From positions 1-47,317 of the forward strand of contig JAGLOZ010000029.1 of NCBI GenBank assembly GCA_023137595.1: DNA of 47,317 nt. Reading direction: 5' to 3'. Every line of letters starts with the position of its first letter. Position 1 is the first letter of the stretch. A program made the translations under genes and the position numbers. This DNA is from Minisyncoccota bacterium. Lineage in GTDB: Bacteria > Patescibacteriota > Minisyncoccia > JAHIHE01 > JAGLIN01. Below, piece by piece: positions 3,988 through 24,860 of this stretch. The notes beneath the pieces are model-generated. The model did not search any database. It was not told the origin of the DNA and saw only the letters and a list, made by a program, of their open reading frames with translations.

Positions 3988-4019
3988 TAATAAATTTCTT
4001 ATAAAATTAAACAAAATCA

Positions 4020-11941: not shown

Positions 11942-11976
11942 TTCATTGACCATTATTCATCACCTCTTTTTTGGTC

Positions 11977-12167: not shown

Positions 12168-12194
12168 AAAAAAATAAAAAATATTATCTTCTTG

Positions 12195-12335
12195 GGACAG
12201 GTTTTATTTAGAATTTTATTATAAATAGAACCTGTCCAGAGGGGACGGCGCAAATTAATAAAAGCCATTCAACGTGATGGCAGGTATAAAACAAAGTCCC
12301 GGGTTATCCCCTGGGAATGGAAACCAATATTAATT
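12195..12335 (+). ncRNA. candidate structured 5' leader or riboswitch-like element upstream of the 34-aa sORF
   Basis: A 9-bp hairpin forms between GGACAGGTT (12195-12203) and AACCTGTCC (12229-12237). It is followed by GC-enriched nested complements: GGGAC 12242-12246 with GTCCC 12296-12300, GCCAT 12264-12268 with ATGGC 12277-12281, and CCAG-A-GGG 12236-12243 with CCCCTGG 12308-12314. No known family recognised. Confidence 0.35.
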
Positions 12336-12365
12336 TGTGAAAGTTTTTAGAAAAGGAGAGAGATC

Positions 12366-12470
12366 ATGGCAAAAAAAGTTGATGTATTAAAATCAGAAAA
12401 AGAAAGTACGGATCAAAGAATTCAACTTCGGATACTTAAAGAAACTTGGAGCGGATCGCCTCCAGTATAA
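12366..12470 (+). CDS. unannotated small ORF, 34 aa (MAKKVDVLKSEKESTDQRIQLRILKETWSGSPPV)
   Basis: AGGAG lies 7 nt upstream of the ATG. A strong terminator follows 24 nt after the TAA. The ORF is below the cutoff of the ORF track. Confidence 0.4.
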   Translation: MAKKVDVLKSEKESTDQRIQLRILKETWSGSPPV

Positions 12471-12493
12471 TGAATTTAGGAAGGATATTTTAC

Positions 12494-12535
12494 AGGAAAG
12501 TTGATATTGAGTTATCACTTTCCTCTTTTTTATTT
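12494..12535 (+). terminator. rho-independent terminator
   Basis: AGGAAAGTTGAT pairs with ATCACTTTCCT (11 bp, one bulge; 12494-12524). It is followed by CTTTTTTATTTT. Confidence 0.7.
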
Positions 12536-12669
12536 TAATATTTTACAATATATTGTTTTAATTTTTTGCGTGACATAGTTGTTCTGTGTCATTATAGTTT
12601 AACGATAAGAATTTCAAAATCACCATTCTACGTTCTCTTGAGAGCGGTTTATTATTTGTAATTTTAGCA

Positions 12670-12698
12670 AAAGACAGTCTTTTTTAAGGACTGTCTTT
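12670..12698 (-). terminator. hairpin downstream of tyrA, a possible weak or bidirectional terminator
   Basis: AAAGACAGTC (12670-12679) pairs with GACTGTCTTT (12689-12698). Only a short T run follows on either strand. Confidence 0.3.
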
Positions 12699-12759
12699 AT
12701 GATTTGCATGATCGCTATTATTACATTTGATTGAAAGATGTTTTAAAAATAATTTATCG

Positions 12760-13542
12760 TTAAGAATTTGAATTAAAATCGCTATTTTTTGTAATTTTGT
12801 CTTCAATTTTTCGACAAGAGTCTAAAAACTTTTGGCGAATCTTTTTCGCGTAAGGGTTGTAATTATTCATATCGTAAAAAAGTCTCCAAGTGTCTCCTGT
12901 CGTGTGGCGATATATTTTTAGTAGATCCGTATACCCAGGTGTAAATATTTCTTGTTCTCTGATTCCTGCGCTCCAAAGCGATCTTCCGAGAAAATGAACG
13001 AGACCCAGAGTTGCTGCGTTTTGCTTGTCATGATTCTGTGGAGTTGTTTGGATTATTTTAAGTCCTAAATTTCTAAAAAGCTTTCTTAACTCTTGTAATT
13101 TTGTTTTCGAAATATTAACGGGGCATAAAACGATCTGATGGCCCCTTAGATCCCAAACTTGTTTTTTCAGATTGAAATTTGTCGTGGCCGGCCCGAACAT
13201 CGGATGCGCTCCGATCGTATTCGCGTGAGTTGGCATATATTTTTTAAGCCATCTGCACGGATAAACTTTTACGGAGCAAACATCCATAACAATCGCGTCC
13301 GGTTTTACAAATCGGGATATGTTTTTAATGATTTCTTCGGTTTTGGATATCGGCACGGCGATAATGACAATATCGCTTTTTGATGTTGTTTCCAGATCAC
13401 AAAATTCTGCTCCTATAATTTTTGCTTTGTCTGGAATTTCTTTCTCATTTCTATAGTGATATATGCGGATTTCTGCGTTTTTTTTCAAAATGCTTGCCAG
13501 CAAAGATCCAAAATTTCCAAATCCGATTATTCCTATTGTCAT
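12760..13542 (-). CDS. tyrA: prephenate dehydrogenase
   Basis: 260 aa with an N-terminal Rossmann motif (IGIIGFGNFGSLLA) and the conserved AHPMFGP motif. It lies downstream of the PDT gene on the same strand. Confidence 0.85.
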   Translation of the reverse strand: MTIGIIGFGNFGSLLASILKKNAEIRIYHYRNEKEIPDKAKIIGAEFCDLETTSKSDIVIIAVPISKTEEIIKNISRFVKPDAIVMDVCSVKVYPCRWLKKYMPTHANTIGAHPMFGPATTNFNLKKQVWDLRGHQIVLCPVNISKTKLQELRKLFRNLGLKIIQTTPQNHDKQNAATLGLVHFLGRSLWSAGIREQEIFTPGYTDLLKIYRHTTGDTWRLFYDMNNYNPYAKKIRQKFLDSCRKIEDKITKNSDFNSNS

Positions 13543-13567
13543 ATTTCTAAAATTTAGATCTATAAAA

Positions 13568-14134
13568 TTACATGGTTGCCGCTATAAATGTCGTGAAGTT
13601 AAATTTTAAATCCTGTATTCCCTCTTCAAGCAGGTTTAATTCATATAGCTCTGCGCATTTTTTGCAGGCGATTATACCGGTGTCTGAAGAAATTTTTCCT
13701 TCATGCAGATCTTTTGCCGCACTGGCTGTGTCGGAATATTCCTGCAGTTCCAAATTTTCCCATTTTCTTTTCAAATACATTCTGCACTGTTTGAGCGCCT
13801 GCGGATGAGAAGCTATTTTTTTTATGTCTTCTGCCTTTGTTTTTGGTTTTGCGAGCAAACAATGTCTGACATTGATTTCAAATATATTTTCTATGTTAAA
13901 AATATATTCACTCATAGCATAAATTGCTTCATAAACGATACCGCCATTTGAATTCTCAATTGGAAAGATTCCTTTATCCATCTCTCCTTTTTTCAGGGCT
14001 TTCATTGTGTTTTTGACGCTTATTAAATATTTGATTTCATAGTTCTTTATGTTGTTATTGTGGCAATAATAATTAGCGGCTTCTTCCGAAAAGCTTCCAA
14101 TATTGCCCGAAACTCCGATTACTATTTTATTCAT
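13568..14134 (-). CDS. pheA: prephenate dehydratase catalytic domain protein lacking the ACT domain
   Basis: 188 aa with PDT motifs: GNIGSFSEEAA, FPIENSNGGIV and ASHPQALKQC. It ends at NFTTF (the position of the TRF motif), so no C-terminal ACT regulatory domain is present. Confidence 0.75.
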   Translation of the reverse strand: MNKIVIGVSGNIGSFSEEAANYYCHNNNIKNYEIKYLISVKNTMKALKKGEMDKGIFPIENSNGGIVYEAIYAMSEYIFNIENIFEINVRHCLLAKPKTKAEDIKKIASHPQALKQCRMYLKRKWENLELQEYSDTASAAKDLHEGKISSDTGIIACKKCAELYELNLLEEGIQDLKFNFTTFIAATM

Positions 14135-14281
14135 ATTTAATGAGTTTAATTATTTATAGGTTTATCTTATCATAAAATTAAAAAAGAGTCATTACTTTAA
14201 ACTCTGAATTCGAAAGGTAACTTCTAACTGTCATTGCGATGACAGTGAGGAGTTAATTCAAAAAGCTCCGAAAACCTTCTC

Positions 14282-14455
14282 TTGACATAATTATTCTTTT
14301 TGCTATACTAATATTATTGAAATAAAATATCTTATGAAATACACAAAAAACAATCAATTTTTCTTTTATAGCTTTTTTAGCCGTCACAAGCGATAGGTTG
14401 TTGTTATAGCTTGATTTTTCCAAAGAACAATCCATCGCAAAGATGGTTTTTTGTT
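14282..14455 (+). promoter_or_regulatory. Phe/Tyr leader-peptide transcription attenuator A in front of the aro operon
   Basis: Promoter: TTGACA 14282-14287, 16-nt spacer with TG, TATACT 14304-14309. The leader ORF is 14334-14396. GCGATAGGTTGTT (14390-14402, contains the TAG stop) is complementary to AACAATCCATCGC (14426-14438) at 12 of 13 positions, including one G-U. The hairpin CCATC-GCAAA-GATGG (14432-14446) is followed by T6 (14447-14452). The aroDEK ATG is at 14493. Confidence 0.75.
14334..14396 (+). CDS. leader peptide MKYTKNNQFFFYSFFSRHKR
   Basis: 20 codons. Five Phe and one Tyr codon fall within 8 consecutive codons (14358-14381). The ORF shares 54 of 63 nt with the second leader at 23728-23790. 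Confidence 0.7.
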   Translation: MKYTKNNQFFFYSFFSRHKR

Positions 14456-14492
14456 ATTTAAATTTAATTTTTATCAGTAATTTATATTATTT

Positions 14493-16388
14493 ATGTTATG
14501 TGGATGTGTTGGAGAAAAAAAGATTAATAATTGTCTAAATCAAATCATTAAAGCCGAGAATAACGGTGCGAAAATTATTGAATTGCGTCTTGATTATTTG
14601 GAACATAAAAATGATTTAAAGCAGATAATTTTATCTTCCAATTTGCCTGTTATCTGCACTAACAGAAATAGCGATCAAAGAATTTTGATTGAGGCGATAG
14701 ATGCCGGCGCAAAATATATTGATATGGATATTAATGAGATTGAATATGATGTTTTGAAATATGCCAGAAAAAAGGGATGTAGGATTATTCTTTCTTATCA
14801 TAATTATAAGGAAACTCCCTCATTAAAGGCAATACTTGCTATAGCAAAAAAATTTCAAAAAGATGCAGATATGATAAAGATAGTAACGACTGCAAGATCA
14901 CAAAAAAACAATGGCATTATTCTGTCGCTTTATGGCGCGATAGAATATCCTCTTATCGCTTTTAGCATGGGCGTGATCGGACAGCAAACTCGAATTGATT
15001 GTTTGGCGCATGGAGCATTGTGGACATATTGTAGTATTGGCCGCAAAAAAATAGCTTCTGGACAAATGAGCTTGGGTGAAATGGCAAAAGAAAAAATATA
15101 TTGTGTGATCGGAAGTCCGATCAGACACTCAATGAGTCCGGTTATGCATAATAAAAATTTCAAATCATTAGGTCTAAATGCAAATTATAGCGCAGTACAA
15201 GTCAGCAACCTTAGCCAATGGATGAAAACCGTTCAAAAAAGAGATATTCACGGGATCAATGTTACAATGCCTTACAAGACAGAAGTGATGAAATATTTAG
15301 ATGAGATTGATCCTTTGGCAGAGAAAATAGGCGCTGTAAATACGATTCATAATAGAAACGGAAAATTGATTGGTTATAACACAGACGCGTTTGGTGCTTT
15401 GCAGGCTATAAAAGAAAAGACAAAAAAATTGAAAAACAGAAAGGTGATAATATTAGGTTCAGGAGGAGCTGCCAGAGCGATCTCGTTTATTCTTGAAAGA
15501 GAAAAAACAGATGTAGTTATTATTTCCAGAAACATAAAAAAAGCAAAAGAAATTGGAAAAGCGTTGAAATATAATAATAAAAACATCAAAGAACAATTAC
15601 AGGAGGCGGATATTTTGATCAATTGTACTCCAATTGGAATGAATTCCAACGAAACTCCAGTGCCAAAAGAGAGTTTGAATAAAAATCTAGTTGTGTTTGA
15701 TATAGTTTATACTCCCATCAAAACAAAGCTCATCAGAGATGCCGAAGAGAAAGGATGCGAGACAATCTTGGGATATAAAATGCTTGCCTTTCAAGGAGCG
15801 CAGTCATTTCAAATTTGGACAGGAAAAAAGCCCAATGTTTCAATTATGCTTGATGCTGTCAAAAAACAACTTTTACCAAGTATAGTCTTGACGGGATTTA
15901 TGGGTTCTGGAAAAACAAGTGTGGGAAAAATATTAGCAAAAGATCTTGGACGAGAATTTATTGATATTGATGAGGAGATAGAAAAAAAGGAAAAAATGTC
16001 AATTAAAAATATTTTTAGAAATCACGGCGAAAAGCATTTTAGAAAATTGGAGAATGAAATTCTCAGAGATGTCGCGTCAAGAAAGAATGTAGTAATTTCC
16101 TGTGGCGGTGGAATTGTTCTTGAGGATAAAAACAGGCAAAGATTAAAATCTTTTATTACTGTTAATTTAAAGGCGGAACCAAGAACTATTGCTCAAAGAT
16201 TATCAAAGGATAAAAGCAGACCGTTATTATTCGGACTAAGCAACAAGGATAAAATAAAAAAAATATCTAGAATATTGAAAGAAAGAGAGAATTTATATAA
16301 AATTACGGCAGATTATTCCGTCAAGACAGACGGTCTCAGCAAAAAAGAAAGTGAAAAAGAAATTATGAGATCAATAATTAAAATTTAA
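14493..16388 (+). CDS. aroDEK: trifunctional 3-dehydroquinate dehydratase (type I) / shikimate dehydrogenase / shikimate kinase fusion
   Basis: 631 aa. The AroD-I part has ELRLDYL, SYHNYKETP and MIKIV. The AroE part has GSPIRHSMSPVMHN, NVTMPYK, NTD and GSGGAARA. The AroK part has the Walker A motif GFMGSGKTSVGK and SCGGGIV. Confidence 0.9.
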   Translation: MLCGCVGEKKINNCLNQIIKAENNGAKIIELRLDYLEHKNDLKQIILSSNLPVICTNRNSDQRILIEAIDAGAKYIDMDINEIEYDVLKYARKKGCRIILSYHNYKETPSLKAILAIAKKFQKDADMIKIVTTARSQKNNGIILSLYGAIEYPLIAFSMGVIGQQTRIDCLAHGALWTYCSIGRKKIASGQMSLGEMAKEKIYCVIGSPIRHSMSPVMHNKNFKSLGLNANYSAVQVSNLSQWMKTVQKRDIHGINVTMPYKTEVMKYLDEIDPLAEKIGAVNTIHNRNGKLIGYNTDAFGALQAIKEKTKKLKNRKVIILGSGGAARAISFILEREKTDVVIISRNIKKAKEIGKALKYNNKNIKEQLQEADILINCTPIGMNSNETPVPKESLNKNLVVFDIVYTPIKTKLIRDAEEKGCETILGYKMLAFQGAQSFQIWTGKKPNVSIMLDAVKKQLLPSIVLTGFMGSGKTSVGKILAKDLGREFIDIDEEIEKKEKMSIKNIFRNHGEKHFRKLENEILRDVASRKNVVISCGGGIVLEDKNRQRLKSFITVNLKAEPRTIAQRLSKDKSRPLLFGLSNKDKIKKISRILKERENLYKITADYSVKTDGLSKKESEKEIMRSIIKI

Positions 16389-16392
16389 TGGT

Positions 16393-16665
16393 ATGGAATT
16401 AAAAGAAATAAGAATAAAATTAGACAAAATAGATAACGACTTGGTTGAAATTGTCGCCAAAAGAATTGAATTAATTCCAGAAGTTGCTGAGTATAAGAAG
16501 GAACATAATCTTGAAAGGTATCAAAAAGGAAGAGAAGACCAAATTATTACAGAATTAAGAAAAAAGGCTTGTGAATTGAATGTTAATCCTGATCTAATAG
16601 AAGATCTGATAAAAAGGATCATTGAAGAATCTCATAGAATTGAAAAAGAAATTATGAAAAAATAA
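16393..16665 (+). CDS. chorismate mutase, AroQ class
   Basis: 90 aa, all-helical. The pattern LKEIRIKLDKIDNDLVEIVAKRIEL...RE matches CM type 2. Confidence 0.8.
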   Translation: MELKEIRIKLDKIDNDLVEIVAKRIELIPEVAEYKKEHNLERYQKGREDQIITELRKKACELNVNPDLIEDLIKRIIEESHRIEKEIMKK

Positions 16666-16829
16666 TTAAATTAGGAATTGCGTATTTGGCGTTTACAGAA
16701 GTTCAGTTTCTCCGTATTTGGTCGTGATTTACAATTTAAATGTTATATACAAGGCAGTACTTAAAATTAAATTGAATGTGTAGAGGTTGAATCTCTTATA
16801 TCTCTTAAGTTCTATAAATAATAAATTAT

Positions 16830-19196
16830 ATGTCTGAGGTCAAATTAATTTTAAACAAATGTGTTCTTGGGAGCGAATCGGTGAAAATTCCTTCATCAAA
16901 AAGTTTTACGCATAGAGCTATAGTTTGCGCCGCTTTGTCATCCGGCATTTCTAGGATTGAGAACCCTTTAATATGTGAAGATATTTTAGCAACGATAGAA
17001 GCGTGCAGATCTTTTGGAGCGAAAATAGAATTAAAAGGAAATGTGATTGAAATTGAAGGTATCGGTAATAATTGGAAGAAACAAAAGTCTAGCGTAAAAA
17101 TAAATTGCCGAGAATCCGGTTCGACAATGAGATTTATAATACCACTTTGCAGTGTTTTGTGTGAATCATCTGAGATTACTGGCAAAATAGGGCTTTTGAA
17201 TAGGCCGATCTATCCAATAATAGATGCGTTAAAACAATTAAATATAAACATAAAAGCAAACGGAAAATATCCACCTGTTCATATAAGAAAAGGAAAACCG
17301 AAAGCTTCTGTAATTCACATTGCCGGAAATATAAGTTCACAATATATTTCAGGGCTCTTGTTCTCTTTGCCATTGTTAGATGGTGATAGCACTTTGATTA
17401 TTACAACTGATTTGCAGTCAAAAGATTATGTTTTGATGACTATTGATGTATTAAAAAGGTTTGGCATTGAAATAATTACATCAAGCGATCTAAGAAAATT
17501 TACGATTAGAGGAAATCAGAACTATAAAGCTGTTAAATGTTATGCCGTGGAAGGGGATTATTCCGCAAGCGCTTTTTGGTTTGTTGCCGGGATTTTTGCT
17601 GCTAGAAGTAAGATAATCATCAAAGGGCTAAGACATTCTTCTCTTCAGGGAGACGCGCAAATTTTAGATATATTAAAAAAAATGGGCGCAGATATTAACT
17701 TTCAAAATGGTAATTTCATTGTCAAAAAAAATCGTTTGAAAGCAATTGAAATTGACGCGAAGAACATTCCTGATCTGGTGCCGATTCTTGCTGTTGCAGG
17801 GACTCAGGCTTATGGAAAAACAATCATAAAGAATATTGAGCGCATCAGAATCAAAGAATCTGATCGAGCAAAAGCAATTACAAGCCAGTTGAAAAAAATG
17901 GGCGCAGTAATTGTTGAAAAAAATAATTCACTGGAAATAAAAGGGCCGACAAAGCTTGTTGGATCGGAAATTGATACTTTTAATGATCATAGAATTGCTA
18001 TGTCAATAGCCGTTGCTTCTCTTGTGACCGAAGGAGAAACAGTCATCAATGATCCAATTTGCATAAAAAAATCATATCCGAATTATTTTGATGATCTAAG
18101 AAAATTAGGCGTAAATGTTGTTCCGATAACTTCAGAGTTTGGAAAAATCGTAAAGATGACGATCTATGGGGATTCTCATGGCAAAAAAGTGGGTGTATGT
18201 CTTGAGGGAATACCAGCTGGAATTCAAATATCAAGAGCTCAAATACAAGAAGAAGTTGATAAGCGCAAAAGCATTAGCTCACTGACTACTCCAAGAAGGG
18301 AAACAGATGCAGTAAAAATTGTTCAAGGAATAAGAAATAATCTGACCACGGGAGAAAAAATTAATTTGGAGATATTAAACAAGAATGTTAATTCTCATTC
18401 TTATGAGCTGATAAAAAACACGCCTCGACCAGGTCATGCGGATCTTGCTGTCAGGACAAAATATGCCAGTGTTTTTGATTATCGCGGAGGAGGTTTTGCT
18501 TCCGGCAGGATGACCGTGTGTATGGTTGCGGCTGGTTCAATTGCAAAGAAAATATTAGTTAATAATGGAATAAAAATCATTGCGTTCACAAAACAAGTCG
18601 GCAATGTGAAGATGAGCAAAAACCCAAGCTTTAAAGATTTAGAAAAAAATACTTATAAAAATTTGGCAAGGTGTCCTGACAATAAAGTCGCGTTAAAAAT
18701 GATAAAAAAAATTGAAGAAACAAAAAAGAAGAATGATTCAATCGGGGGCATTGTGGAGTGTATGATCATTGGCTTGCCTGTTGGACTCGGAGAGCCCTTA
18801 TTTAATTCTATGGAAAGTGTTCTTTCTCAAGCAATGTTTTCAATTCCTGCGATTAAAGCGGTAGAGTTTGGTTCTGGTTTCAAATCTGTTACTATGAGCG
18901 GAAGCAAACATAATGATAGTTTTCATTTTGATGAAAATGATAATATAATTTCTTCGTCAAATAATGCGGGAGGAATTTTAGGCGGGATAACGACCGGGAT
19001 GCCTATTATTTTCAGAATAGCGGTTAAGCCGACTGCTTCTATCGGTTCTGTGCAAAATACGGTTAGTTTTGAAACTTGCAGAGATGCTAAAATTACGGTT
19101 GGCGGAAGGCACGACCCTTGTATTGTCATTCGAGTTCCTCCAGTAGCTGAAGCGATGGCGTCAATTTCAATTCTTGATCTGTTGTATCGAGCATAA
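16830..19196 (+). CDS. aroAC: bifunctional EPSP synthase / chorismate synthase fusion
   Basis: 788 aa. The N-terminal ~430 aa are EPSPS (PSSKSFTHRAIVCAALS, ESGSTMRF, DHRIAMS). The C-terminal ~350 aa are chorismate synthase (YGDSHGKKVGV, RPGHADL, GGRHDPC). Confidence 0.9.
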   Translation: MSEVKLILNKCVLGSESVKIPSSKSFTHRAIVCAALSSGISRIENPLICEDILATIEACRSFGAKIELKGNVIEIEGIGNNWKKQKSSVKINCRESGSTMRFIIPLCSVLCESSEITGKIGLLNRPIYPIIDALKQLNINIKANGKYPPVHIRKGKPKASVIHIAGNISSQYISGLLFSLPLLDGDSTLIITTDLQSKDYVLMTIDVLKRFGIEIITSSDLRKFTIRGNQNYKAVKCYAVEGDYSASAFWFVAGIFAARSKIIIKGLRHSSLQGDAQILDILKKMGADINFQNGNFIVKKNRLKAIEIDAKNIPDLVPILAVAGTQAYGKTIIKNIERIRIKESDRAKAITSQLKKMGAVIVEKNNSLEIKGPTKLVGSEIDTFNDHRIAMSIAVASLVTEGETVINDPICIKKSYPNYFDDLRKLGVNVVPITSEFGKIVKMTIYGDSHGKKVGVCLEGIPAGIQISRAQIQEEVDKRKSISSLTTPRRETDAVKIVQGIRNNLTTGEKINLEILNKNVNSHSYELIKNTPRPGHADLAVRTKYASVFDYRGGGFASGRMTVCMVAAGSIAKKILVNNGIKIIAFTKQVGNVKMSKNPSFKDLEKNTYKNLARCPDNKVALKMIKKIEETKKKNDSIGGIVECMIIGLPVGLGEPLFNSMESVLSQAMFSIPAIKAVEFGSGFKSVTMSGSKHNDSFHFDENDNIISSSNNAGGILGGITTGMPIIFRIAVKPTASIGSVQNTVSFETCRDAKITVGGRHDPCIVIRVPPVAEAMASISILDLLYRA

Positions 19197-19223
19197 TTTA
19201 TTAAATAAAATAACCAAAAAAAT

Positions 19224-19985
19224 ATGAATAAAGAAAAGGAAATTCTACTGGCAAAAATCATTGATCCAGAGAAAAATCGCGTTGTAATTCTGCCAATGGA
19301 TCATGGTGTGAGCGAAGGTCCGATTGACGGACTGATAAATATGAAGGAAACAATTTTAAAGGTTAAGCAAGGAGGAGTTGACGCTATTGTGATTCATAAA
19401 GGAATTTATAAAAAATACAAAGAGGTGATTGGAGATTTACCGGCGCTAATTCATCTTTCTGCTTCGACAAAAATAGGAAATGTTTTAAAAAAAGTTCTGA
19501 TAGCAACAGTCCAAGAAATCAAAGAATTAGGAGCGCAAGGCGCGTCAATTCATGTAAACCTTGGCAATAAATATGAAGAAGATATGCTCAAAGATCTTGG
19601 AGTTGTTTCGCGAGAGTGCGAGAGAATCGGACTGCCGCTGCTTGCAATGATGTACCCAAGAGACGAAGAAAATGGAAGAATAATTTCATATACGGATTCA
19701 GAAAGAGTTAAACTTGCAGCCAGAGTGGCCTTTGAGTTGGGTGCTGATATTGTTAAGGTTCCATATACAGGCAGCGCGGAAAGTTTTCAGGAGGTTTGCC
19801 AAGGCGTTGATATTCCGGTTGTAATTGCTGGTGGGGCCAAGGGCAATGAAAAAGAAATGCTAAAGTCTATTAAGGATTGTGTAATGGTTGGCGCGGCTGG
19901 AGTTTCTATCGGACGCAATGCTTTTCAAGCTGATGATATACCCAGGACAATTGGAAAAATAAGAAGCGTTGTATATGATAACTAG
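19224..19985 (+). CDS. aroA': 2-amino-3,7-dideoxy-D-threo-hept-6-ulosonate (ADH) synthase, archaeal-type (class I aldolase DhnA/FbaB family)
   Basis: 253 aa. The sequences ILPMDHGVSEGPI, IHVNLG, LLAMMYPR, ADIVKVPYTG and AAGVSIGRNAFQ closely recall MJ0400-type proteins. The gene sits directly upstream of DHQ synthase II. Confidence 0.7.
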   Translation: MNKEKEILLAKIIDPEKNRVVILPMDHGVSEGPIDGLINMKETILKVKQGGVDAIVIHKGIYKKYKEVIGDLPALIHLSASTKIGNVLKKVLIATVQEIKELGAQGASIHVNLGNKYEEDMLKDLGVVSRECERIGLPLLAMMYPRDEENGRIISYTDSERVKLAARVAFELGADIVKVPYTGSAESFQEVCQGVDIPVVIAGGAKGNEKEMLKSIKDCVMVGAAGVSIGRNAFQADDIPRTIGKIRSVVYDN

Positions 19986-20013
19986 TTTTTAATTAAAAAA
20001 TAAAAATAATTTC

Positions 20014-21021
20014 ATGAAAAAGTTTTGGTATAAAATATTAAATTGGGATAAAAGATTAGTTTCAGCTGCAATTGAAAGCGGATTTGATTCTATCTATGTA
20101 TCGTCCGATGATGTCAAAAAAGTCAGAGAACTCTCCAGAATAGGAGTTATTTCAAACAACAAAGAGGCTGATCTAGTTTTAGATAAAGACGTTAAAGAGA
20201 TTATTATCAAGTCAAAGGAATCAGAAAAAGATATTGTTAATTTAAATGGAAAAATTCCTGTTATTATAAAAAATAAAGATTGGACTATAATTCCTCTTGA
20301 AAATTTGATTTCCAAAACGACTAATTTAATTCAGTATGTAGAAAATTACAAAGAGGCGAAGGTTGCTCTTGAAACGATGGAAAAAGGCGCTGACGGCATT
20401 GTCCTTGAGACAAATGATATGAATGAGATTAAAAAAGTTGGGAATCTGATCAGAGAGATCCAGAACGAGAAATTATCTTTGACAGAAGTTGAGATAGACA
20501 GAATCAAACAAGTTGGAATCGGTGATCGTGTTGTTGTTGACACTTCAAGCATTTTGAAACCGGGACAAGGGATATTGGCGGGAGACTCATCCTCTGCGAT
20601 GTTTTTAGTATATAATGAAAATGTTCAAACTCCTTATTGCGATCCTCGTCCTTTTAGGGTTAATGCGGGAGGAGTTCATGCTTATGTTCAGATAGCAGGA
20701 GATAAAACAAAATATTTAGGAGAGCTGGCAAGCGGATCAAAAATAATGGTTGTTGATCAAAACGGAAATACGCAAGAAGCTATTATTGGACGAGTTAAAA
20801 TTGAAAAGAGACCAATGCTGGCAGTATATGCTCATTATCATAATAAAAAGATGAGTTTGATAATGCAGAATGCAGAAACGATTCGGTTAACGAAAAAAGA
20901 TGGAAGTCCTATTTCCGTTACAAAATTGAAAAAGGGAGATAGGGTTTTAGCAAATCTTGAGCAAGATGGGGTTGGTAGGCATTTCGGTCAAAAAATTAAA
21001 GAAACTATTTTAGAAAAATAA
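20014..21021 (+). CDS. aroB': 3-dehydroquinate synthase II (archaeal-type)
   Basis: 335 aa with N-terminal FWYKI..WDKRLVSAAIESGFDSIYV and C-terminal GRVKIEKRPMLAVYA, as in the DHQS type II family (MJ1249-like). Confidence 0.75.
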   Translation: MKKFWYKILNWDKRLVSAAIESGFDSIYVSSDDVKKVRELSRIGVISNNKEADLVLDKDVKEIIIKSKESEKDIVNLNGKIPVIIKNKDWTIIPLENLISKTTNLIQYVENYKEAKVALETMEKGADGIVLETNDMNEIKKVGNLIREIQNEKLSLTEVEIDRIKQVGIGDRVVVDTSSILKPGQGILAGDSSSAMFLVYNENVQTPYCDPRPFRVNAGGVHAYVQIAGDKTKYLGELASGSKIMVVDQNGNTQEAIIGRVKIEKRPMLAVYAHYHNKKMSLIMQNAETIRLTKKDGSPISVTKLKKGDRVLANLEQDGVGRHFGQKIKETILEK

Positions 21022-21025
21022 TAAA

Positions 21026-22417
21026 ATGGAAAAAAGAAGATCAAAAATAATAGTAAATAAATTTGGCGGTGGAATTCTAACTTCAAGATATATTCTTGTT
21101 GCCAAAAAACGGATTGAACAGCAAATAGAAAAAGGCTATAGCCCGATTGTTGTAGTTTCAGCGCTAAACGGAGTGACAGACGATCTAGTTGAATTCTTTT
21201 CTGAGCTTAATAATGTAAATCTGCGAAGAAGAAAAGAAAATAGAAATGAAAACAGACATATCGAGAATTTAATTGATTTGTTCATTAAGGATATCAGAAA
21301 AAAGCATATCTTAATGATGCGAAGAGTGAAAATAAGCGAAGAAGATCAAGACAAGATAATGCTTTCTTTTGATCAAGTATTTCAGGAAATGAAAGATGAT
21401 TTTGCTGCTAGCACTCGTTTTGGAGGTTTGGATATGGTTCAAGATAAAATTCTTTCATATGGAGAGCGACTAAGCGCTTTGTTTTTCTGTGTATTTTTGA
21501 ATGTAAATGACATCAAAGCTAAAATATTTCTAGCAGAGGATATTCCAATTACAACGGATAACGTTCATTTGAATGCAAATATTAATTATAATGAAGCATC
21601 AAGAAATACTAGAAAAACATTAAAGTCTATGAATGCGATACCTATTATAAACGGATTTACCGGAAGGGATAAGGATGGAAATATTACAACCTTGGGAAGG
21701 GGTGGAACAGACACAACAGCGTGTTTTGTCGGAGCGGCGCTAAAAGCAGATAGGGTTGTCTTGTGGAAAGATACAAAGGGAGTATTATCCGCAGATCCGC
21801 GGATCATTCAAAATGCTAAAACAATCGCTTATCTCAGCTATGAAGAAGCAGTTGAATCTGGAAAGATCGTCCACGACAAAGCCATTTCTTATGTGAAAGA
21901 CTCTAAGACCCCTTTGGAAATTGTTTCTATATCTGATACAAAAAAATATACTTTGGTTGGACCCCAAAGCAAAGAAGATGTCGGCGCTAAAATTATTGGC
22001 TTCAAAAAAGAATTAATGCTTATGGTTATAACCGATGATAGGGTGAGCGAATATGGATTTCTTTTTGGTGTTGCAAAAATTTTGAGTTTCCATAAAATTA
22101 ATATGGTTTTAATTCGCAATACTCGCGACAGTCTTCATGTTGTAGTTGAAAATGATAATGTCAATCTAGAGAAGGCGTTAGAGGAATTGAAAAGGAAAAA
22201 ATATTTAATTTGTTGTTGGCCTGTTTGTATGATAACTTTAATCGGCAGTTTGAATTGGAAAATGGTTAATATTTTCAATGATGTGCTTTTAGAAAATTGT
22301 TCAAATCCTCAATTAGGCGCTTTTCCTTATAAACATTGCGTTCGACTGGAAGCTGTCGTAAAAAGTACAGAAATGAAAAAAGTTATGCGCGAACTTCACA
22401 AGAAGTTTATTAATTGA
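21026..22417 (+). CDS. aspartate kinase
   Basis: 463 aa with VNKFGGGIL, VVVSALNGVTDDL and GRGGTDTTA, and a C-terminal ACT-like region. It starts 4 nt after the aroB' stop. Confidence 0.8.
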   Translation: MEKRRSKIIVNKFGGGILTSRYILVAKKRIEQQIEKGYSPIVVVSALNGVTDDLVEFFSELNNVNLRRRKENRNENRHIENLIDLFIKDIRKKHILMMRRVKISEEDQDKIMLSFDQVFQEMKDDFAASTRFGGLDMVQDKILSYGERLSALFFCVFLNVNDIKAKIFLAEDIPITTDNVHLNANINYNEASRNTRKTLKSMNAIPIINGFTGRDKDGNITTLGRGGTDTTACFVGAALKADRVVLWKDTKGVLSADPRIIQNAKTIAYLSYEEAVESGKIVHDKAISYVKDSKTPLEIVSISDTKKYTLVGPQSKEDVGAKIIGFKKELMLMVITDDRVSEYGFLFGVAKILSFHKINMVLIRNTRDSLHVVVENDNVNLEKALEELKRKKYLICCWPVCMITLIGSLNWKMVNIFNDVLLENCSNPQLGAFPYKHCVRLEAVVKSTEMKKVMRELHKKFIN

Positions 22418-22511
22418 GATTTTGCTTTGAGATATACTAATATTTTAAAGCATGGAAATAAAAATATGTATTTTAAAACCTAATATATTAATAAAATAAT
22501 TAAGTTAGATT

Positions 22512-23597
22512 ATGAAAAAATATAAAGTAGGAATTTTAGGGGCAACTGGCATGGTCGGTCAAAATTATATTAAATTATTAGAAGATCATCCTTGGTTTGA
22601 TATTTCTTATCTGGCAGCTTCTCCCAGGACTGCGGGAGAAAAATATGGCAGAGAGATGAAAGACAAATGGCAAATGGATGTTGCTATGCCAGAGAATGTG
22701 CTTAATATAGTCCTTGAAGATGTTGGTAATGTTGAAAAAATCAAAGGAAAATGTGACCTTGTTTTTTCTTCGTTTGGGATGAATAGTGATGAAAAGATCA
22801 GAGATTGTGAAAATAAATATGCAAAATTTGGCCTGCCGGTTGTCTCTAGCTCTTCTGCCAACAGGCATACAAAAGATGTGCCGATGATCGTTCCGGAAGT
22901 GAATTCCGGACATTTAGAAATGATTAAAATTCAGAAAAAAAATCACTTATGGGATAAAGGATTTATTGTCACTAAGCCAAATTGCAGCTTACAAAGTTAT
23001 ATTATTCCGGTGTATGCGCTAATGAAAGCCGGTTATGAAGTCAAGAAAATGATAGTTACGACTTTGCAAGCAGTCTCCGGAGGGGGGTATCCCGGCATAG
23101 CAAGTTTAGATATGATTGATAATGTTGTTCCTTATATCGGAGGAGAAGAAGAAAAGAGTGAAACAGAACCATTAAAAGTACTAGGAAAAATTGAAAATGG
23201 AAATTATAAAAATTTTGATGATTTGAAAATTTCAGCGCACTGTAATCGAGTTCCCGTAGCAGATGGTCATTTAGCATGCGTGAGTATGCTTTTTGGAAAA
23301 AATAAACCAAACAAAAGCGAGATTATAAATATTTGGAGAGATTTTAGACCAGATATTCAAGGATTAAATTTACCGTTTGCTCCGAGTCCTACTATCATAT
23401 ATAAAGAAGAAGAGAATAGACCTCAACCCAAAAAGGATCGCCAAGAAGGAAATGGCATGGCGATTACGATTGGAAGATTGAGAGAGTGTAATGTTTTTGA
23501 TCATAAATTTACTTGTTTAAGCCACAACACTATCAGAGGAGCAGCAGGCGGCGGAATTTTGCTTGCAGAACTTTTAGCAAAAAAAAGGTTGATTTAG
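22512..23597 (+). CDS. asd: aspartate-semialdehyde dehydrogenase (archaeal/fungal-type branch)
   Basis: 361 aa with KVGILGATGMVGQ (Rossmann), the active-site motif KPNCSLQ, and RVPVADGHLACV. Confidence 0.85.
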   Translation: MKKYKVGILGATGMVGQNYIKLLEDHPWFDISYLAASPRTAGEKYGREMKDKWQMDVAMPENVLNIVLEDVGNVEKIKGKCDLVFSSFGMNSDEKIRDCENKYAKFGLPVVSSSSANRHTKDVPMIVPEVNSGHLEMIKIQKKNHLWDKGFIVTKPNCSLQSYIIPVYALMKAGYEVKKMIVTTLQAVSGGGYPGIASLDMIDNVVPYIGGEEEKSETEPLKVLGKIENGNYKNFDDLKISAHCNRVPVADGHLACVSMLFGKNKPNKSEIINIWRDFRPDIQGLNLPFAPSPTIIYKEEENRPQPKKDRQEGNGMAITIGRLRECNVFDHKFTCLSHNTIRGAAGGGILLAELLAKKRLI

Positions 23598-23666
23598 TGG
23601 GACAGAATTAATTTATTTATCAGAATTTACAAAGCCGTAAATGCAGAAAAAAACGGAAACATATGG

Positions 23667-23849
23667 TTGACATATATTATCTATATGCTATTATTGTTTT
23701 TAGATAAAGAATCAGTTCAATATAATTATGAATCATACAAAGAATAATCAATTTTTCTTTTTTAGCTTTTTTAGCCGTCATCTGCGATAGGTTGTTTTTT
23801 CAGCATAATTTTCTCAAAAAACAATCCATCGCAAAGATGGTTTTTTGTT
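23667..23849 (+). promoter_or_regulatory. Phe leader-peptide transcription attenuator B (paralog of A)
   Basis: Promoter: TTGACA 23667-23672, 16-nt spacer with TG, TATTAT 23689-23694. The leader ORF is 23728-23790. GCGATAGGTTGTTTTTT (23784-23800) is complementary to AAAAAACAATCCATCGC (23816-23832). The hairpin CCATC-GCAAA-GATGG (23826-23840) is followed by T6. The 30 nt at 23820-23849 are identical to 14426-14455. Confidence 0.75.
23728..23790 (+). CDS. leader peptide MNHTKNNQFFFFSFFSRHLR
   Basis: 20 codons, with six Phe codons within seven consecutive codons (23752-23772). The TAG stop lies inside the antiterminator strand. Confidence 0.7.
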   Translation: MNHTKNNQFFFFSFFSRHLR

Positions 23850-24013
23850 TGTTTAAAGGCGCTTGTAATTGCAATAATAAGAATGGAATTTACCCTTTAG
23901 GGTTTCAAAAATCACTGAAATTCTGGAGGGTGGATTTAAGAAATCACCTAAAACAAAAAGATTCTTTGAACCGATAACGGCGGAATTAAAACTAAAGTAA
24001 AAGAGGCAGAAAT

Positions 24014-24151
24014 ATGAATGAAATAAAAGATGAAATTGAAGTGAGGGATCCCATTCTTAAAATTGCCGACAAAGTGCATCAAGGAATGGAAAAAGGAAGA
24101 GAGTTGGACAAAAGACGTAATTCTTTTGCAGGGCGTCAGAATGGATTCTGA
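24014..24151 (+). CDS. unannotated small ORF, 45 aa (MNEIKDEIEVRDPILKIADKVHQGMEKGRELDKRRNSFAGRQNGF)
   Basis: AGAGG lies 7 nt upstream of the ATG. It is the first ORF downstream of attenuator B. The terminator hairpin overlaps its stop codon. It is below the ORF-track cutoff. Confidence 0.4.
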   Translation: MNEIKDEIEVRDPILKIADKVHQGMEKGRELDKRRNSFAGRQNGF

Positions 24152-24166
24152 TGCCCTTTATTTATT
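24131..24166 (+). terminator. rho-independent terminator
   Basis: GGGCGTCAGAA (24131-24141) pairs with TTCTGATGCCC (24146-24156), 11 bp including one G-U, with loop TGGA. It is followed by TTTATTTATT. Confidence 0.65.
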
Positions 24167-24241
24167 ATTAAAGGTTTTTGTCATTTGATATTGTATAGCT
24201 CTGGATGCCCGGTGTCTTTGGAGACACGGGGTGTCTATAGG

Positions 24242-24281
24242 AGAAGAGAGTCAAAAACGATGACTCTCTTCTTTTCTATTT
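24242..24281 (+). terminator. second plus-strand terminator-like hairpin
   Basis: GAAGAGAGTCA (24243-24253) pairs perfectly with TGACTCTCTTC (24261-24271) over 11 bp. It is followed by TTTTCTATTT. There is no T run in the minus orientation. Confidence 0.5.
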
Positions 24282-24293
24282 AGAATCTTATTT

Positions 24294-24860
24294 CTATTTT
24301 TCCACTGCCAAAAAATTTGTGAAATTAAACTTCAAGTCTTGTATTCCTTTTTCCATAACAATAAGACCATATAAAGTAGCGCAGCTTTCAGGGGCGAGGA
24401 CGGCAGTGTCCTTGGAAAGATTTCCCTCTGAGAGGTCTTTTGCTGATTTCGCGGTATCTTCAGTCTCATGCAGGCCAGTTTCTCCCCAGTTTCTCTTAAG
24501 ATAAGTTTTGCATTGCTTGAGCGCCTGATCATGAGAGGCTATGTTCTTTATATCTTCTTTTTCAATTCCTGGTTTTGTTAGCAAGCAATGAACCACGGGA
24601 ATTTCAAAAATTTCTTTTATTTTGAATGTATGCCTTGAGATCGCATAAACACTTTCAATAACAACACCGCCGTTTGAGTTTTCAATTGGAAAGATGCCCA
24701 AGTCAATTTCTTTTTTGTCAATTTCAGTGAGGACTTTTTCTACGGAAATAAGGCATTTAATTTCATAGTTTTTGATGCCATTTTTTCTAGCGTGTTCATT
24801 TGCGGCTTGTTCCGAAAAACTGCCGATATCGCCAGAAACGCCGATTTTTATTTTTTTCAT
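24294..24860 (-). CDS. pheA: prephenate dehydratase catalytic domain paralog lacking the ACT domain
   Basis: 188 aa, the same length as the 13568-14134 product and roughly 60 percent identical by eye (GDIGSFSEQAA, FPIENSNGGVV, ASHDQALKQC, NFTNF). Confidence 0.75.
   Translation of the reverse strand: MKKIKIGVSGDIGSFSEQAANEHARKNGIKNYEIKCLISVEKVLTEIDKKEIDLGIFPIENSNGGVVIESVYAISRHTFKIKEIFEIPVVHCLLTKPGIEKEDIKNIASHDQALKQCKTYLKRNWGETGLHETEDTAKSAKDLSEGNLSKDTAVLAPESCATLYGLIVMEKGIQDLKFNFTNFLAVEK

Follow-up and report, generated by a model that had tools for sequence, protein, structure and literature searches.

The window (the whole stretch of 47,317 nucleotides that was analysed, from contig JAGLOZ010000029.1) contains a four-gene block at 19224–23597 that lies 3′ of genes for an AroD-E-K fusion, a chorismate mutase and an AroA-C fusion, with all of these genes on the same strand. 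The genes of aromatic amino acid synthesis at this locus are the following.

12760–13542, − strand: tyrA, prephenate dehydrogenase (PF02153; NF006409 at 128 bits, below the cutoff)
13568–14134, − strand: prephenate dehydratase 1 (PDT1), divergent to the operon (PF00800, E = 3e-44)
14493–16388, + strand: aroD (type I dehydroquinase)-aroE (shikimate dehydrogenase)-aroK (shikimate kinase) trifunctional fusion (Pfam, NCBIfam)
16393–16665, + strand: chorismate mutase, AroQ/CM_2 (PF01817, E = 8e-20)
16830–19196, + strand: aroA (EPSP synthase)-aroC (chorismate synthase) bifunctional fusion (TIGR01356, 414.9 bits; TIGR00033, 390.7 bits)
19224–19985, + strand: ADH synthase-type class I aldolase (2-amino-3,7-dideoxy-D-threo-hept-6-ulosonate synthase, MJ0400-like; 253 aa; PRK07226 and MJ0400 matches)
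20014–21021, + strand: 3-dehydroquinate synthase II (DHQS II, MJ1249-like; 335 aa; PF01959, NF002627)
21026–22417, + strand: aspartate kinase (AK; 463 aa; TIGR00657, PDB match 3c1m)
22512–23597, + strand: aspartate-semialdehyde dehydrogenase (ASD), archaeal/fungal type, asd_EA (361 aa; TIGR00978, 1ys4)
24294–24860, − strand: prephenate dehydratase 2, a paralogue with 61% identity to PDT1

The gaps within the four-gene block are 28, 4 and 94 nt on the ORF map, and no terminator-like site is present between the genes from 14493 to 23597; the genes are predicted to be co-transcribed. We consider it probable that the region from 14282 to ~23650 is a ~9.1-kb Patescibacteria (CPR) operon that leads to chorismate and prephenate via the aspartate-semialdehyde (ASA) route and carries its own precursor supply. 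No earlier description of such an operon was found in the searchable literature. The window also encodes lgt, dprA, pth, LytR-Cps-Psr, ftsA/ftsZ, ybeY and topA, and the close DHQS II homologues that bear names all come from Patescibacteria MAGs; this bacterial gene set and these homologues support the bacterial, CPR-like host that a preliminary description of the locus had supposed. The four ORFs of the block lie at the positions and on the + strand given there, and profile searches bear out the families to which they had been assigned.

The 253-aa protein matches PF01791 (DeoC, E = 2e-48) and scores 277.6 bits against the NCBIfam ADH-synthase subfamily PRK07226 (cutoff 241), with a score narrowly under the cutoff of the ADH synthase equivalog TIGR01949 (272.3 bits; cutoff 299.45). 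Its top match in a PDB search is MJ0400 (2qjg, 218 bits), followed at a distance by the T. tenax FBP aldolase (117 bits), and the equivalents of Asp33, Tyr153 and Lys184 of MJ0400 are kept. The 335-aa protein matches PF01959 over its full length (E = 6e-118), exceeds the cutoff of the equivalog NF002627 (421; cutoff 392) and is 48% identical to the DHQS II of Methanotorris igneus. These matches support, at family level, the reading of this pair as ADH synthase and DHQS II. The narrowly missed equivalog cutoff is a point in favour of a different assignment, in which the DeoC protein is a glycolytic/gluconeogenic class I FBP aldolase or the pair forms a GriI/GriH-like 3-amino-4-hydroxybenzoate system, whose enzymes share both families and also use ASA. 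Moreover, the Halobacterium homologue of MJ0400 has FBP aldolase activity and no detectable reaction with ASA and DKFP (PMC4162585), which makes the co-substrate outside methanogens uncertain. However, the 253-aa protein reaches only 143.6 with the model for archaeal class I FBP aldolases (cutoff 430), which speaks against the FBP-aldolase grouping that the preliminary description had set against its own reading, and MJ0400 lies above the FBP aldolases by 100 bits. The BagB/FevI and BagC/FevH models likewise give only 167.6 (cutoff 500) and 147.8 (cutoff 750), and the pair is embedded in a complete DHQ-to-prephenate set in a window with no other DHQ source. An FBP aldolase or a Gri-type system is therefore scarcely credible here.

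The next two genes encode an aspartate kinase and an archaeal/fungal-type ASD, as had been proposed. The kinase matches TIGR00657 over residues 7–462 (253.8; cutoff 208.7), and its top PDB match is the M. jannaschii aspartokinase 3c1m (112 bits). The ASD scores 357.9 with asd_EA (TIGR00978, cutoff 301.2) compared with 97 for the bacterial asd_B model, and its top PDB match is the M. jannaschii ASD 1ys4 (292 bits). Alignment with the latter enzyme showed that the Cys of the TKPNCS motif and the His of the DGH motif, which we take to be the catalytic residues, are kept.

The chemistry proposed for this locus follows the M. jannaschii pathway of White (2004) as it is summarised in PMC4162585. Aspartate kinase and ASD would convert L-aspartate through aspartyl-4-phosphate to ASA, to which the MJ0400-type aldolase would add a three-carbon unit by way of a Lys Schiff base to give 2-amino-3,7-dideoxy-D-threo-hept-6-ulosonate; DKFP in particular is a presumed substrate. 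Oxidative deamination and cyclisation by DHQS II would then yield 3-dehydroquinate, which the fused AroD-E-K and AroA-C proteins and chorismate mutase would carry to prephenate; from there, TyrA and both prephenate dehydratases, encoded close by, would produce the keto acids that precede Tyr and Phe. The AroD-E-K fusion comprises the Pfam domains DHquinase_I, Shikimate_dh_N/SDH_C and SKI (NCBIfam aroE, 274.6 bits; shikimate kinase, 158.6 bits). PDT1 consists of the PDT domain only, with no ACT domain, and covers positions 4–181 of the 284-position NCBIfam model. The cluster lacks DAHP synthase and AroB, as claimed previously: neither the DAHP-synthase nor the DHQ_synthase (AroB) Pfam domain occurs in the window ORFs of at least 100 aa that were scanned, which are all the non-overlapping ones but 39611–39961 and 44843–45565; precomputed Pfam annotation of the following 10 kb of the contig, which takes in these two ORFs, shows neither domain. 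The description of the window as a nearly self-contained Phe/Tyr pathway applies to aroDEK, chorismate mutase, aroAC, tyrA and the two prephenate dehydratases; it does not extend to an aminotransferase, which is absent from the window, or to a DKFP-forming enzyme, which was found neither in the window nor in the next 10 kb.

The arrangement of the block was compared among 14 GTDB Patescibacteria species loci and six non-CPR contexts (Lindowbacteria, Delftia, Aminicenantes, the bacteria L024 and L026, and Undinarchaeales). The four-gene block is present in 12 of the 14 related loci, and its gene order is common to Parcubacteria, Moranbacteria, Roizmanbacteria and one Gracilibacteria MAG; the Gracilibacteria loci L015 and L016 have DHQS II without the block. 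AK lies directly 3′ of DHQS II in 12/14 loci, as in the window, and ASD follows directly in 11/14, with that of L013 located 2.5 kb further. In L007–L009 and L018, the ASD slot is occupied by the bacterial asd_B (394 and 391 bits) in place of asd_EA; the gene lineage has changed there, but the ASD function has been kept. An aminotransferase gene is also present in L010, and in L011 the ASD gene is followed by an aspartate-aminotransferase-like gene, for which the archaeal AspAT model is the best match, and by an archaeal-type PEP carboxylase gene (TIGR02751, 464 bits; cutoff 146), which would extend the supply line from PEP through oxaloacetate and Asp to ASA. The DeoC-DHQS pair is found in each of the six non-CPR contexts, in none of which an AK or ASD gene adjoins it.

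The DNA ahead of aroD-E-K, and a second copy just 3′ of asd, have the following features.

14282–14309, + strand: sigma-70-type promoter, TTGACA, 16 nt, TGcTATACT (extended −10), by pattern match only
14334–14396, + strand: leader ORF of 20 codons, MKYTKNNQFFFYSFFSRHKR and stop, with six Phe/Tyr codons among codons 9–15
14389–14398, + strand: predicted antiterminator segment (GCGAUAGG); it shares bases with the leader stop codon and can pair with the terminator's 5′ arm
14432–14452, + strand: predicted intrinsic terminator within the attenuator, CCATC-GCAAA-GATGG and then T6
23667–23846, + strand: second copy of promoter, leader (MNHTKNNQFFFFSFFSRHLR and stop, 23728–23790) and terminator (23826–23846)

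The promoter, a pattern match only, agrees with the consensus at 11 of 12 positions and has the TG motif, and in most related loci an equivalent TTGACA box lies 5′ of the leader. All 11 loci with upstream DNA have an F/Y/W-rich leader ORF ahead of the block, for which the chance expectation is 3–19% per locus (product ~3e-13), and a hairpin with a U-run is located between every leader and the first gene. The lack of a Shine-Dalgarno motif at the leader ORF is normal here, since only 1 of 35 genes of this organism has one. In the window, the antiterminator duplex has a predicted energy of −7.6 kcal/mol (−4.0 ± 1.7 in shuffles), and the pairing outperforms shuffled sequences in 12/12 leaders (z from −2.2 to −7.9, mean −4.6). 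The antiterminator segment is located at the leader stop codon or up to ~30 nt upstream, within the 3′ part of the ORF, and the three-segment relationship is constant even though the arm sequences vary by locus (CCATC, GCCTC, ATCTCC, CCCCGC, CCGGCC and others). Under constrained MFE folding, 9 of the 12 leaders change over from antiterminator to terminator, whereas in L006, L017 and L018 the terminator persists even with a stalled ribosome. The second copy is a 131-nt repeat with 85% identity to 14332–14462 and shows the same folding switch. This arrangement looks like classical leader-peptide attenuation, of which no report in CPR bacteria was found in the literature. When Phe/Tyr-tRNAs are scarce, the ribosome would stall in the FFFYSFF run of the leader, leaving the stop-codon segment open for pairing with the terminator's 5′ arm, and transcription would read through; when they are plentiful, a ribosome at the stop codon would mask the segment, and the terminator would form and halt transcription. 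Because this attenuator-like Phe/Tyr leader heads the presumed transcription unit, expression of AK and ASD would appear to respond to the aromatic amino acid supply.

In a rival reading, AK and ASD serve the synthesis of lysine/diaminopimelate, threonine or methionine, as ordinary enzymes of the aspartate family, and adjoin the aromatic genes by chance. In its favour, both are universal entry enzymes of that family, DAP or Lys may be required for the peptidoglycan that CPR bacteria make, and the ASA-forming genes of Halobacterium are not co-regulated with aromatic biosynthesis (PMC4162585). Against this, the adjacency in 12/14 CPR loci spans several classes and has outlasted replacement of the ASD subfamily, the annotated flanks have no hom, thrB, dapA or dapB-like gene, and the leader of the unit has Phe/Tyr codons instead of Lys/Thr/Met codons. 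We consider a chance association unlikely, although AK and ASD may serve both purposes. The gene order kept in 12/14 CPR loci and missing from the six non-CPR contexts, together with the Phe/Tyr leader in front, supports the view that AK and ASD were placed in the operon as a dedicated supply of ASA.

The preliminary description had further suggested that an archaeal-like module was acquired. Among solved or characterised homologues, those of Methanocaldococcaceae come out best for each of the four proteins (MJ0400, the Methanotorris DHQS II, and the ASD and AK of M. jannaschii), and the PEP carboxylase and aminotransferase of L011 are of archaeal affinity. However, the GC content of the block (0.32–0.39) is the same as that of the flanks, and homologues with 54–72% identity and the same synteny occur across many CPR classes. 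The window DHQS II is no closer to methanogens (39–46% identity) than to other bacteria (41–47%). In an NJ tree of DHQS II, other bacteria adjoin the CPR clade (Lindowbacteria, Aminicenantes, Halothiobacillaceae and Delftia, without bootstrap support), and bootstrap values are poor, with no stable sister group. A recent horizontal transfer from an archaeon is thus very unlikely; since GC matches the flanks, DHQS II is equidistant and the sister group is unstable, any transfer must be old, and an ancient transfer in either direction is possible. Of the earlier interpretation, the ASA-fed shikimate entry with its dedicated AK and ASD and the CPR host are supported, while archaeal acquisition is not established. 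A CPR bacterium with a tiny genome would accordingly make Phe and Tyr by an "archaeal" route from aspartate semialdehyde.

The DKFP/ASA pathway was reportedly described in M. jannaschii by White in 2004 and in M. maripaludis by Porat et al. in 2006. The window resembles the M. jannaschii pathway in both enzyme families (MJ0400, with its three residues kept, and MJ1249) and in the canonical aroD-to-aroC downstream route. The genes of this pathway are scattered in methanogens, whereas in the Patescibacteria host the ADH synthase and DHQS II genes are adjacent in one probable operon with AK and ASD, and one relative adds PEP carboxylase and an aminotransferase. The window also differs in that no MJ1585-type DKFP-forming aldolase is seen nearby and that regulation is by a predicted bacterial leader-peptide attenuator. 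The non-CPR bacterial pairs (Lindowbacteria, Aminicenantes, Delftia, L024 and L026) likewise have a DeoC-family gene directly followed by DHQS II, often within aro/trp operons, but differ in having no adjoining AK or ASD; the Delftia pair has a catabolic-looking, transposase-flanked context. The Streptomyces GriI/GriH enzymes (BagB/BagC, FevI/FevH) of 3-amino-4-hydroxybenzoate synthesis share homologous families and the ASA substrate, but their branch NCBIfam models score far under cutoff here, and they belong to a secondary-metabolite cluster, unlike the primary aromatic amino acid context of the window. Finally, the leader resembles the E. coli pheA/pheST, trp, his, thr, leu and ilv attenuators in having a short ORF with successive codons for the regulating amino acids and an intrinsic terminator whose 5′ arm alternatively pairs with a segment ending the leader ORF. 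It differs from them in its CPR host, its minimal three-segment design with the antiterminator located at the leader stop codon or slightly ahead of it, its mixed Phe, Tyr and occasionally Trp codons, its lack of a Shine-Dalgarno motif and its probable control of the aro genes together with AK and ASD.

The four genes of the block, which encode ADH synthase (ADHS, an MJ0400-type class I aldolase), 3-dehydroquinate synthase II (DHQS II), aspartate kinase (AK) and aspartate-semialdehyde dehydrogenase (ASD), lie on one strand and are separated by gaps of 28, 4 and 94 nt. The positions in the preliminary description match the ORF coordinates exactly, all on the forward strand, and its four family identities agree with the results of profile searches (Pfam, NCBIfam). 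Public annotation already gives these enzymes their names, and all are members of known families.

19224-19985, forward strand: ADHS, 253 aa (profile and solved-structure searches)
20014-21021, forward strand: DHQS II, 335 aa (PF01959 end to end, NF002627)
21026-22417, forward strand: AK, 463 aa (TIGR00657)
22512-23597, forward strand: ASD of the archaeal/fungal type, 361 aa (TIGR00978, asd_EA)

Profile search places the 253-aa protein in the DeoC/LacD family of class I aldolases. For the ADH-synthase subfamily model of NCBIfam (PRK07226) its score is 277.6 bits, above the cutoff of 241, and for the equivalog TIGR01949 272.3, narrowly under the cutoff of 299.45, while models of sister families score far lower (Fbpase1_Arch, 143.6; LsrF-type, 117.7; BagB/FevI, 167.6). 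A search of solved structures (PDB) gave MJ0400 of Methanocaldococcus jannaschii as clearly the best match, with 218 bits compared to 117 for a Thermoproteus FBP aldolase. The MJ0400 residues Asp33 (PMDHG), Tyr153 (MMYPR) and Lys184 (ADIVK) are kept in the alignment; in MJ0400, Lys184 is the Schiff-base lysine and Asp33 the proton acceptor (PMC4162585). As these residues are also common to class I FBP aldolases, they indicate a competent active site rather than a substrate specificity.

For DHQS II, residues 2–335 align with positions 1–344 of the 344 in PF01959 (394 bits), and the protein scores 421 on the equivalog NF002627 against a cutoff of 392. It is 48% identical over its full length to DHQS II of Methanotorris igneus (282 bits), a member of the Methanocaldococcaceae, the family in which, we take it, DHQS II activity was demonstrated. 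A sequence search found no solved DHQS II structure. AK scores 253.8 on TIGR00657 (cutoff 208.7; residues 7–462) and 247 on the monofunctional equivalog TIGR00656, under the cutoff of 402. Pfam detects only the kinase domain in this protein, and the regulatory domain is therefore divergent. ASD scores 357.9 on asd_EA (cutoff 301.2) and aligns with M. jannaschii ASD (1ys4) at 292 bits, with the TKPNCS and DGH motifs, whose Cys and His are presumably catalytic, in place; comparators are bacterial ASDs at ~50 bits and the Sulfolobus malonyl-CoA reductase paralogue at 225 bits.

The remaining pathway genes surround the block. Upstream on the same strand are an aroD-aroE-aroK fusion, a chorismate mutase gene and an aroA-aroC fusion, and the opposite strand carries tyrA and two prephenate dehydratase (PDT) genes. 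Neither DAHP synthase nor AroB domains were detected among the window ORFs of at least 100 aa scanned with Pfam. Precomputed gene calls covering a further 10 kb of the source contig (86.8 kb in all), and with it two window ORFs outside the direct Pfam scan, show none either. These 10 kb contain housekeeping genes only; besides DAHP synthase and AroB, they also lack dap, hom and aminotransferase genes. The proposal of a near-complete Phe/Tyr gene set held for the steps from 3-dehydroquinate (DHQ) to the keto-acid precursors of Phe and Tyr, which are encoded in the window, but not for the final transamination or for the formation of DKFP (6-deoxy-5-ketofructose-1-phosphate), as neither an aminotransferase nor anything like the DKFP-forming step is encoded there. 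The presumed host, a bacterium of the CPR (Patescibacteria) type, was borne out by the bacterial flanking genes (lgt, dprA, pth, LytR-Cps-Psr, lepB, ybeY, ftsA, ftsZ and topA) and by the close DHQS II homologues carrying names, all of which come from Patescibacteria MAGs (Parcubacteria, Moranbacteria, Roizmanbacteria, Gracilibacteria and Peregrinibacteria) with identities of 55–74%. The contig derives from a metagenome (ENA ERZ23498442), and the window has a GC content of ~33%. A Shine-Dalgarno-like motif (GGAG, GAGG, AGGA or AAGG in the 20 nt before the start) precedes only one of 35 window genes, and A and T predominate in the sequences before the starts; the organism appears to initiate translation without Shine-Dalgarno pairing.

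Further upstream, at 1936-6438, are genes for a 683-aa protein of the ADP-forming acetyl-CoA synthetase type (CoA-binding, Succ_CoA_lig and ATP-grasp_5 domains), a pyruvate:ferredoxin oxidoreductase gamma-type subunit and a 2x[4Fe-4S] ferredoxin. Such genes would fit a CPR bacterium that lives anaerobically by fermentation.

To place the block in context, the window proteins were mapped onto 14 species-representative Patescibacteria loci encoding a DHQS II relative (fetched loci are denoted by L numbers), with the Gracilibacteria loci re-read in genetic code 25. The ADHS gene, which adjoins that of DHQS II across the 28-nt gap in the window, is likewise adjacent to it in L006, L008-L013 and L017-L019, the CPR loci with upstream DNA showing an ADHS gene. 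AK lies directly 3' of DHQS II in 12 of the 14 loci, followed directly by ASD in 11; in L013, an inserted gene intervenes and ASD comes 2.5 kb later. DHQS II occurs by itself only in two Gracilibacteria loci (L015 and L016). The occupant of the ASD slot varies: asd_EA fills it in the window and other loci, and the bacterial-type asd_B in L007-L009 and L018 (394 and 391 bits, TIGR01296). In the Moranbacteria MAG L011, ASD is followed, within 13506-16260, by an aspartate-aminotransferase-like gene, which L010 shares, and an archaeal-type PEP carboxylase gene (TIGR02751, 464 bits, cutoff 146), ahead of aroA. Judged from its gene content, the L011 operon encodes the full route that leads from PEP to L-aspartate semialdehyde (ASA) by way of oxaloacetate, aspartate and aspartyl-phosphate, and onward to chorismate. 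Retention of the ASD slot despite a swapped occupant, together with the extension in L011, argues for selection on function and against an accident of gene order.

As a contrast set, we used six DHQS II contexts from outside CPR (Lindowbacteria, Delftia, Aminicenantes, two other bacteria and an Undinarchaeales archaeon). An aldolase gene accompanies DHQS II in all six, several of them within aro/trp operons, and the ADHS and DHQS II genes are adjacent in five, with two genes in between in L026. AK or ASD is found beside DHQS II in none of the six. Within this sample, the linkage to ASA supply is a CPR feature. The conserved AK-ASD linkage lends indirect support to ASA as a probable substrate of ADHS.

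A scan for promoters and terminators, together with inspection of the region between the promoter and the first structural gene, revealed the following elements upstream of aroDEK.

14282-14309, forward strand: near-consensus promoter, TTGACA, 16 nt, TGcTATACT (promoter/terminator scan)
14334-14396, forward strand: leader ORF of 20 codons, MKYTKNNQFFFYSFFSRHKR, with a run of aromatic codons
14432-14452, forward strand: small hairpin followed by a T-run, a terminator (promoter/terminator scan)
Predicted switch pairing in the window: GCGAUAGG (antiterminator segment) with CCAUCGC (5' arm of the terminator)

Promoter, leader and terminator together have the anatomy of a predicted leader-peptide attenuator responsive to Phe/Tyr. 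Eleven loci have 350 nt or more before the first gene of the block, and in all 11 an aromatic-rich short ORF (at least five aromatic residues in an eight-residue window) is present on the coding strand just upstream. Examples are L017 (MKIVQLWFSYFYFYFTL...), L013 (MKNTEVKKYFWFYFFTD...), L011 (...QIYYFFYFFFN...) and L012 (...SFYFYFYPE). Random strand-specific 350-nt windows of the same locus contain an ORF of this kind with a chance of 3–19% per locus, giving a joint probability of ~3e-13; L008/L009 and L017/L019 are close pairs, leaving about eight independent lineages among the leader loci.

A GC-rich hairpin with a U-tract lies between leader and first gene for all 12 leaders (the L018 terminator was located by hand), and the 5' arm of each terminator can pair instead with a segment at the leader stop codon or up to ~30 nt upstream of it (12/12). 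Compared with 500 shuffled versions of the same upstream sequence, these antiterminator duplexes are stronger, at z values from -2.2 to -7.9 (mean -4.6). The arms vary by locus and the three-segment relationship is constant, which amounts to covariation of the kind expected for a functional switch. In constrained MFE folds, a ribosome on the aromatic codons leads to the antiterminator and one at the stop codon to the terminator in nine of the 12 leaders; in L006, L017 and L018, the terminator is thermodynamically favoured in both ribosome states. This computational evidence suggests that ribosome position may switch the leader between antiterminator and terminator. Rfam at gathering thresholds gave no match across the whole window, and on this ground we rejected a T-box or a known riboswitch ahead of the operon; ARAGORN found no tRNA in the window.

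In relatives, the leader lies directly ahead of the ADHS gene, and in the window it precedes aroDEK because the aro genes have moved ahead of the ADHS gene in this lineage. In both arrangements AK and ASD are located behind a predicted Phe/Tyr sensor, and no other single observation argues as strongly that what they make goes into the aromatic pathway. It is possible that AK and ASD are in dual use and also feed other ASA-consuming pathways. The reading of the pair as an ASA supply for aromatic synthesis, first made from the window, has gained ground: AK adjoins DHQS II in 12 of 14 CPR loci, the association survives the ASD swap, and the genes stand behind the Phe/Tyr leader.

Both PDT paralogues, at 13568-14134 and 24294-24860 on the reverse strand, are 188 aa long and 61% identical, and consist of the catalytic PDT domain without the ACT regulatory domain. 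The ACT domain usually confers Phe feedback inhibition on prephenate dehydratase, and control by Phe may have shifted here from PDT feedback to the transcriptional attenuator.

Additional elements of similar layout are present 3' of the block and ahead of the first leader.

23667-23694 and 23826-23846, forward strand: second promoter/terminator pair, just after asd (promoter/terminator scan)
23728-23790, forward strand: second leader ORF of 20 codons, MNHTKNNQFFFFSFFSRHLR, a Phe leader
11977-12004, forward strand: third near-consensus promoter, TTGACA, 16 nt, TGtTATACT (pattern match)

The first and second leader regions share a 131-nt repeat with 85% identity. The second copy faces the 3' end of the convergent second PDT gene and may serve as a 3' terminator of the operon, control a small RNA or peptide, or be a decaying duplicate. 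We rejected the explanation that a PDT gene and its leader were copied together in a simple segmental duplication, as the repeat spacings differ (10726 vs 9394 nt) and the leaders lie on opposite sides of the PDTs. Beyond the second leader are ~170 nt rich in hairpins, a 45-codon ORF (24014-24151) preceded by AAGAGG, a Shine-Dalgarno-like motif that is odd in a genome otherwise lacking such motifs, and a strong 12-bp terminator (24130-24157). The third promoter is followed by a 20-codon ORF, METCSTTTIYAVKVISLLIR, that is not aromatic-rich, then by hairpins and a 34-codon ORF (12366-12470) with a strong AAGGAG, and no long forward-strand gene comes after it. The layout of 11977-12475 resembles the region behind the second leader, and part of it aligns weakly with that region. 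The 45-aa ORF product has no NCBIfam match, and neither it nor the 34-aa product has a homologue in any fetched locus. Rfam searches of 23600-24300 and 11940-12765 at permissive E-values returned only implausible sub-threshold matches (for example, miRNA families, and sau-63 at 34.9 bits against a gathering threshold of 100).

By analogy with the M. jannaschii pathway (White 2004 and Porat 2006, as cited in PMC4162585 and PMC9885046), AK and ASD would make ASA, and the MJ0400-type aldolase would move a three-carbon unit from a keto-sugar phosphate onto it. DHQS II would then carry out NAD-dependent oxidative deamination and cyclisation of the aldolase product to give 3-dehydroquinate, with canonical enzymes handling the remaining steps. 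The genes are closely spaced and no terminator-like site was seen between any two of them in 14493-23597, which suggests that they may be co-transcribed. In M. jannaschii the keto-sugar phosphate is DKFP. The experimental basis of the route from ASA and DKFP to dehydroquinate is the in vitro study of two M. jannaschii enzymes, together with genetics in M. maripaludis. A homologous Halobacterium aldolase cleaved FBP and gave no detectable reaction with ASA and DKFP, and ASA genes are not co-regulated with the aromatic pathway in haloarchaea (PMC4162585).

Tentatively, and with confidence somewhat below even, we propose that in many Patescibacteria AK and ASD have been withdrawn from the aspartate family into a dedicated, Phe/Tyr-attenuated aromatic arm, in some lineages starting from PEP via an archaeal-type PEP carboxylase and an aminotransferase. 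The ring would be made without erythrose-4-phosphate and, given that no enzyme forming DKFP is evident, perhaps from a sugar-phosphate donor other than DKFP.

The best characterised or solved homologues of all four block proteins come from Methanocaldococcaceae, which, with the archaeal-type PEP carboxylase in L011, gives the module an archaeal flavour. In a neighbour-joining tree of 156 DHQS II proteins, the CPR proteins cluster, with a Delftia sequence nested among them; their neighbours are Lindowbacteria, Aminicenantes and Halothiobacillaceae, and methanogen, Asgard and DPANN sequences are further off. Of 100 bootstraps on a reduced set, only 46 gave a CPR clade (whether or not it included Delftia), and no sister group was stable. 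The window DHQS II is 54–72% identical to CPR sequences, 41–47% to those of other bacteria and 39–46% to those of methanogens. The module is old within CPR. The acquisition of an archaeal-like module, as suggested in the preliminary description, could not be demonstrated, given the weak bootstraps, the similar identities to methanogens and to other bacteria, and a block GC content equal to that of the flanks.

The Delftia acidovorans (Betaproteobacteria) DHQS II (L022 and L023; 8001-9011 in L022) is the top match in a 50%-identity library (46%, 341 bits) and falls within or beside the CPR clade in the neighbour-joining tree. It is accompanied by genes for a DeoC aldolase, a shikimate dehydrogenase, a transposase, an IclR regulator and sugar/MFS transporters, which points to horizontal transfer and perhaps to a function in quinate/shikimate catabolism. 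A protein of the green alga Ostreobium quekettii annotated as 3-dehydroquinate synthase (P0236; 398 aa) is a DHQS II family member, with 179 bits against the window protein, and hints that type II DHQ synthase also occurs in some algae or associated microbes.

In the searchable literature, which leaves most subscription journals outside it, we found no CPR operon joining the ADHS-DHQS II pair to AK and ASD, sometimes with aspartate aminotransferase and PEP carboxylase, no in-place swap of ASD type, neither this Phe/Tyr attenuator nor any other CPR leader-peptide attenuator, and no link of this ASA-based pathway to CPR bacteria; such absence is not proof of novelty. The locking of ADHS and DHQS II to AK and ASD is independent comparative-genomic evidence for ASA as the physiological substrate; the operon is kept across many CPR lineages, persists through the ASD swap and, in one locus, reaches as far as PEP carboxylase. 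If the proposal is true, this would be the first bacterial evidence, independent of M. jannaschii enzymology, on the in vivo substrates of ADHS. The compact, clonable CPR operons suit work on the sugar donor. To our knowledge, the usual description of CPR bacteria is that they cannot make amino acids; the wide occurrence and tight organisation of this Phe/Tyr module show that some lineages keep a costly biosynthesis, which bears on exchange with hosts. If true, ribosome-mediated attenuation would also be at work in CPR bacteria without Shine-Dalgarno-led initiation. A conserved attenuator would carry a textbook mechanism into a large uncultivated part of the bacterial tree, and the amino acid composition of leaders offers a sequence-only handle on what an operon responds to.

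The window also differs from its relatives in how the shikimate enzymes are joined. AroD-AroE-AroK (14493-16388) is a single ORF of 631 aa and AroA-AroC (16830-19196) one of 788 aa; related CPR loci with these enzymes gave separate tblastn matches, and in L010-L013 the order is aroA, aroK, aroE, aroD and then aroC. Identical fusion ORFs are called in the independently assembled L001 and L002, and the fusions are therefore not assembly artefacts. The AroD-AroE-AroK and AroA-AroC proteins partly recall the eukaryotic AROM multi-enzyme.
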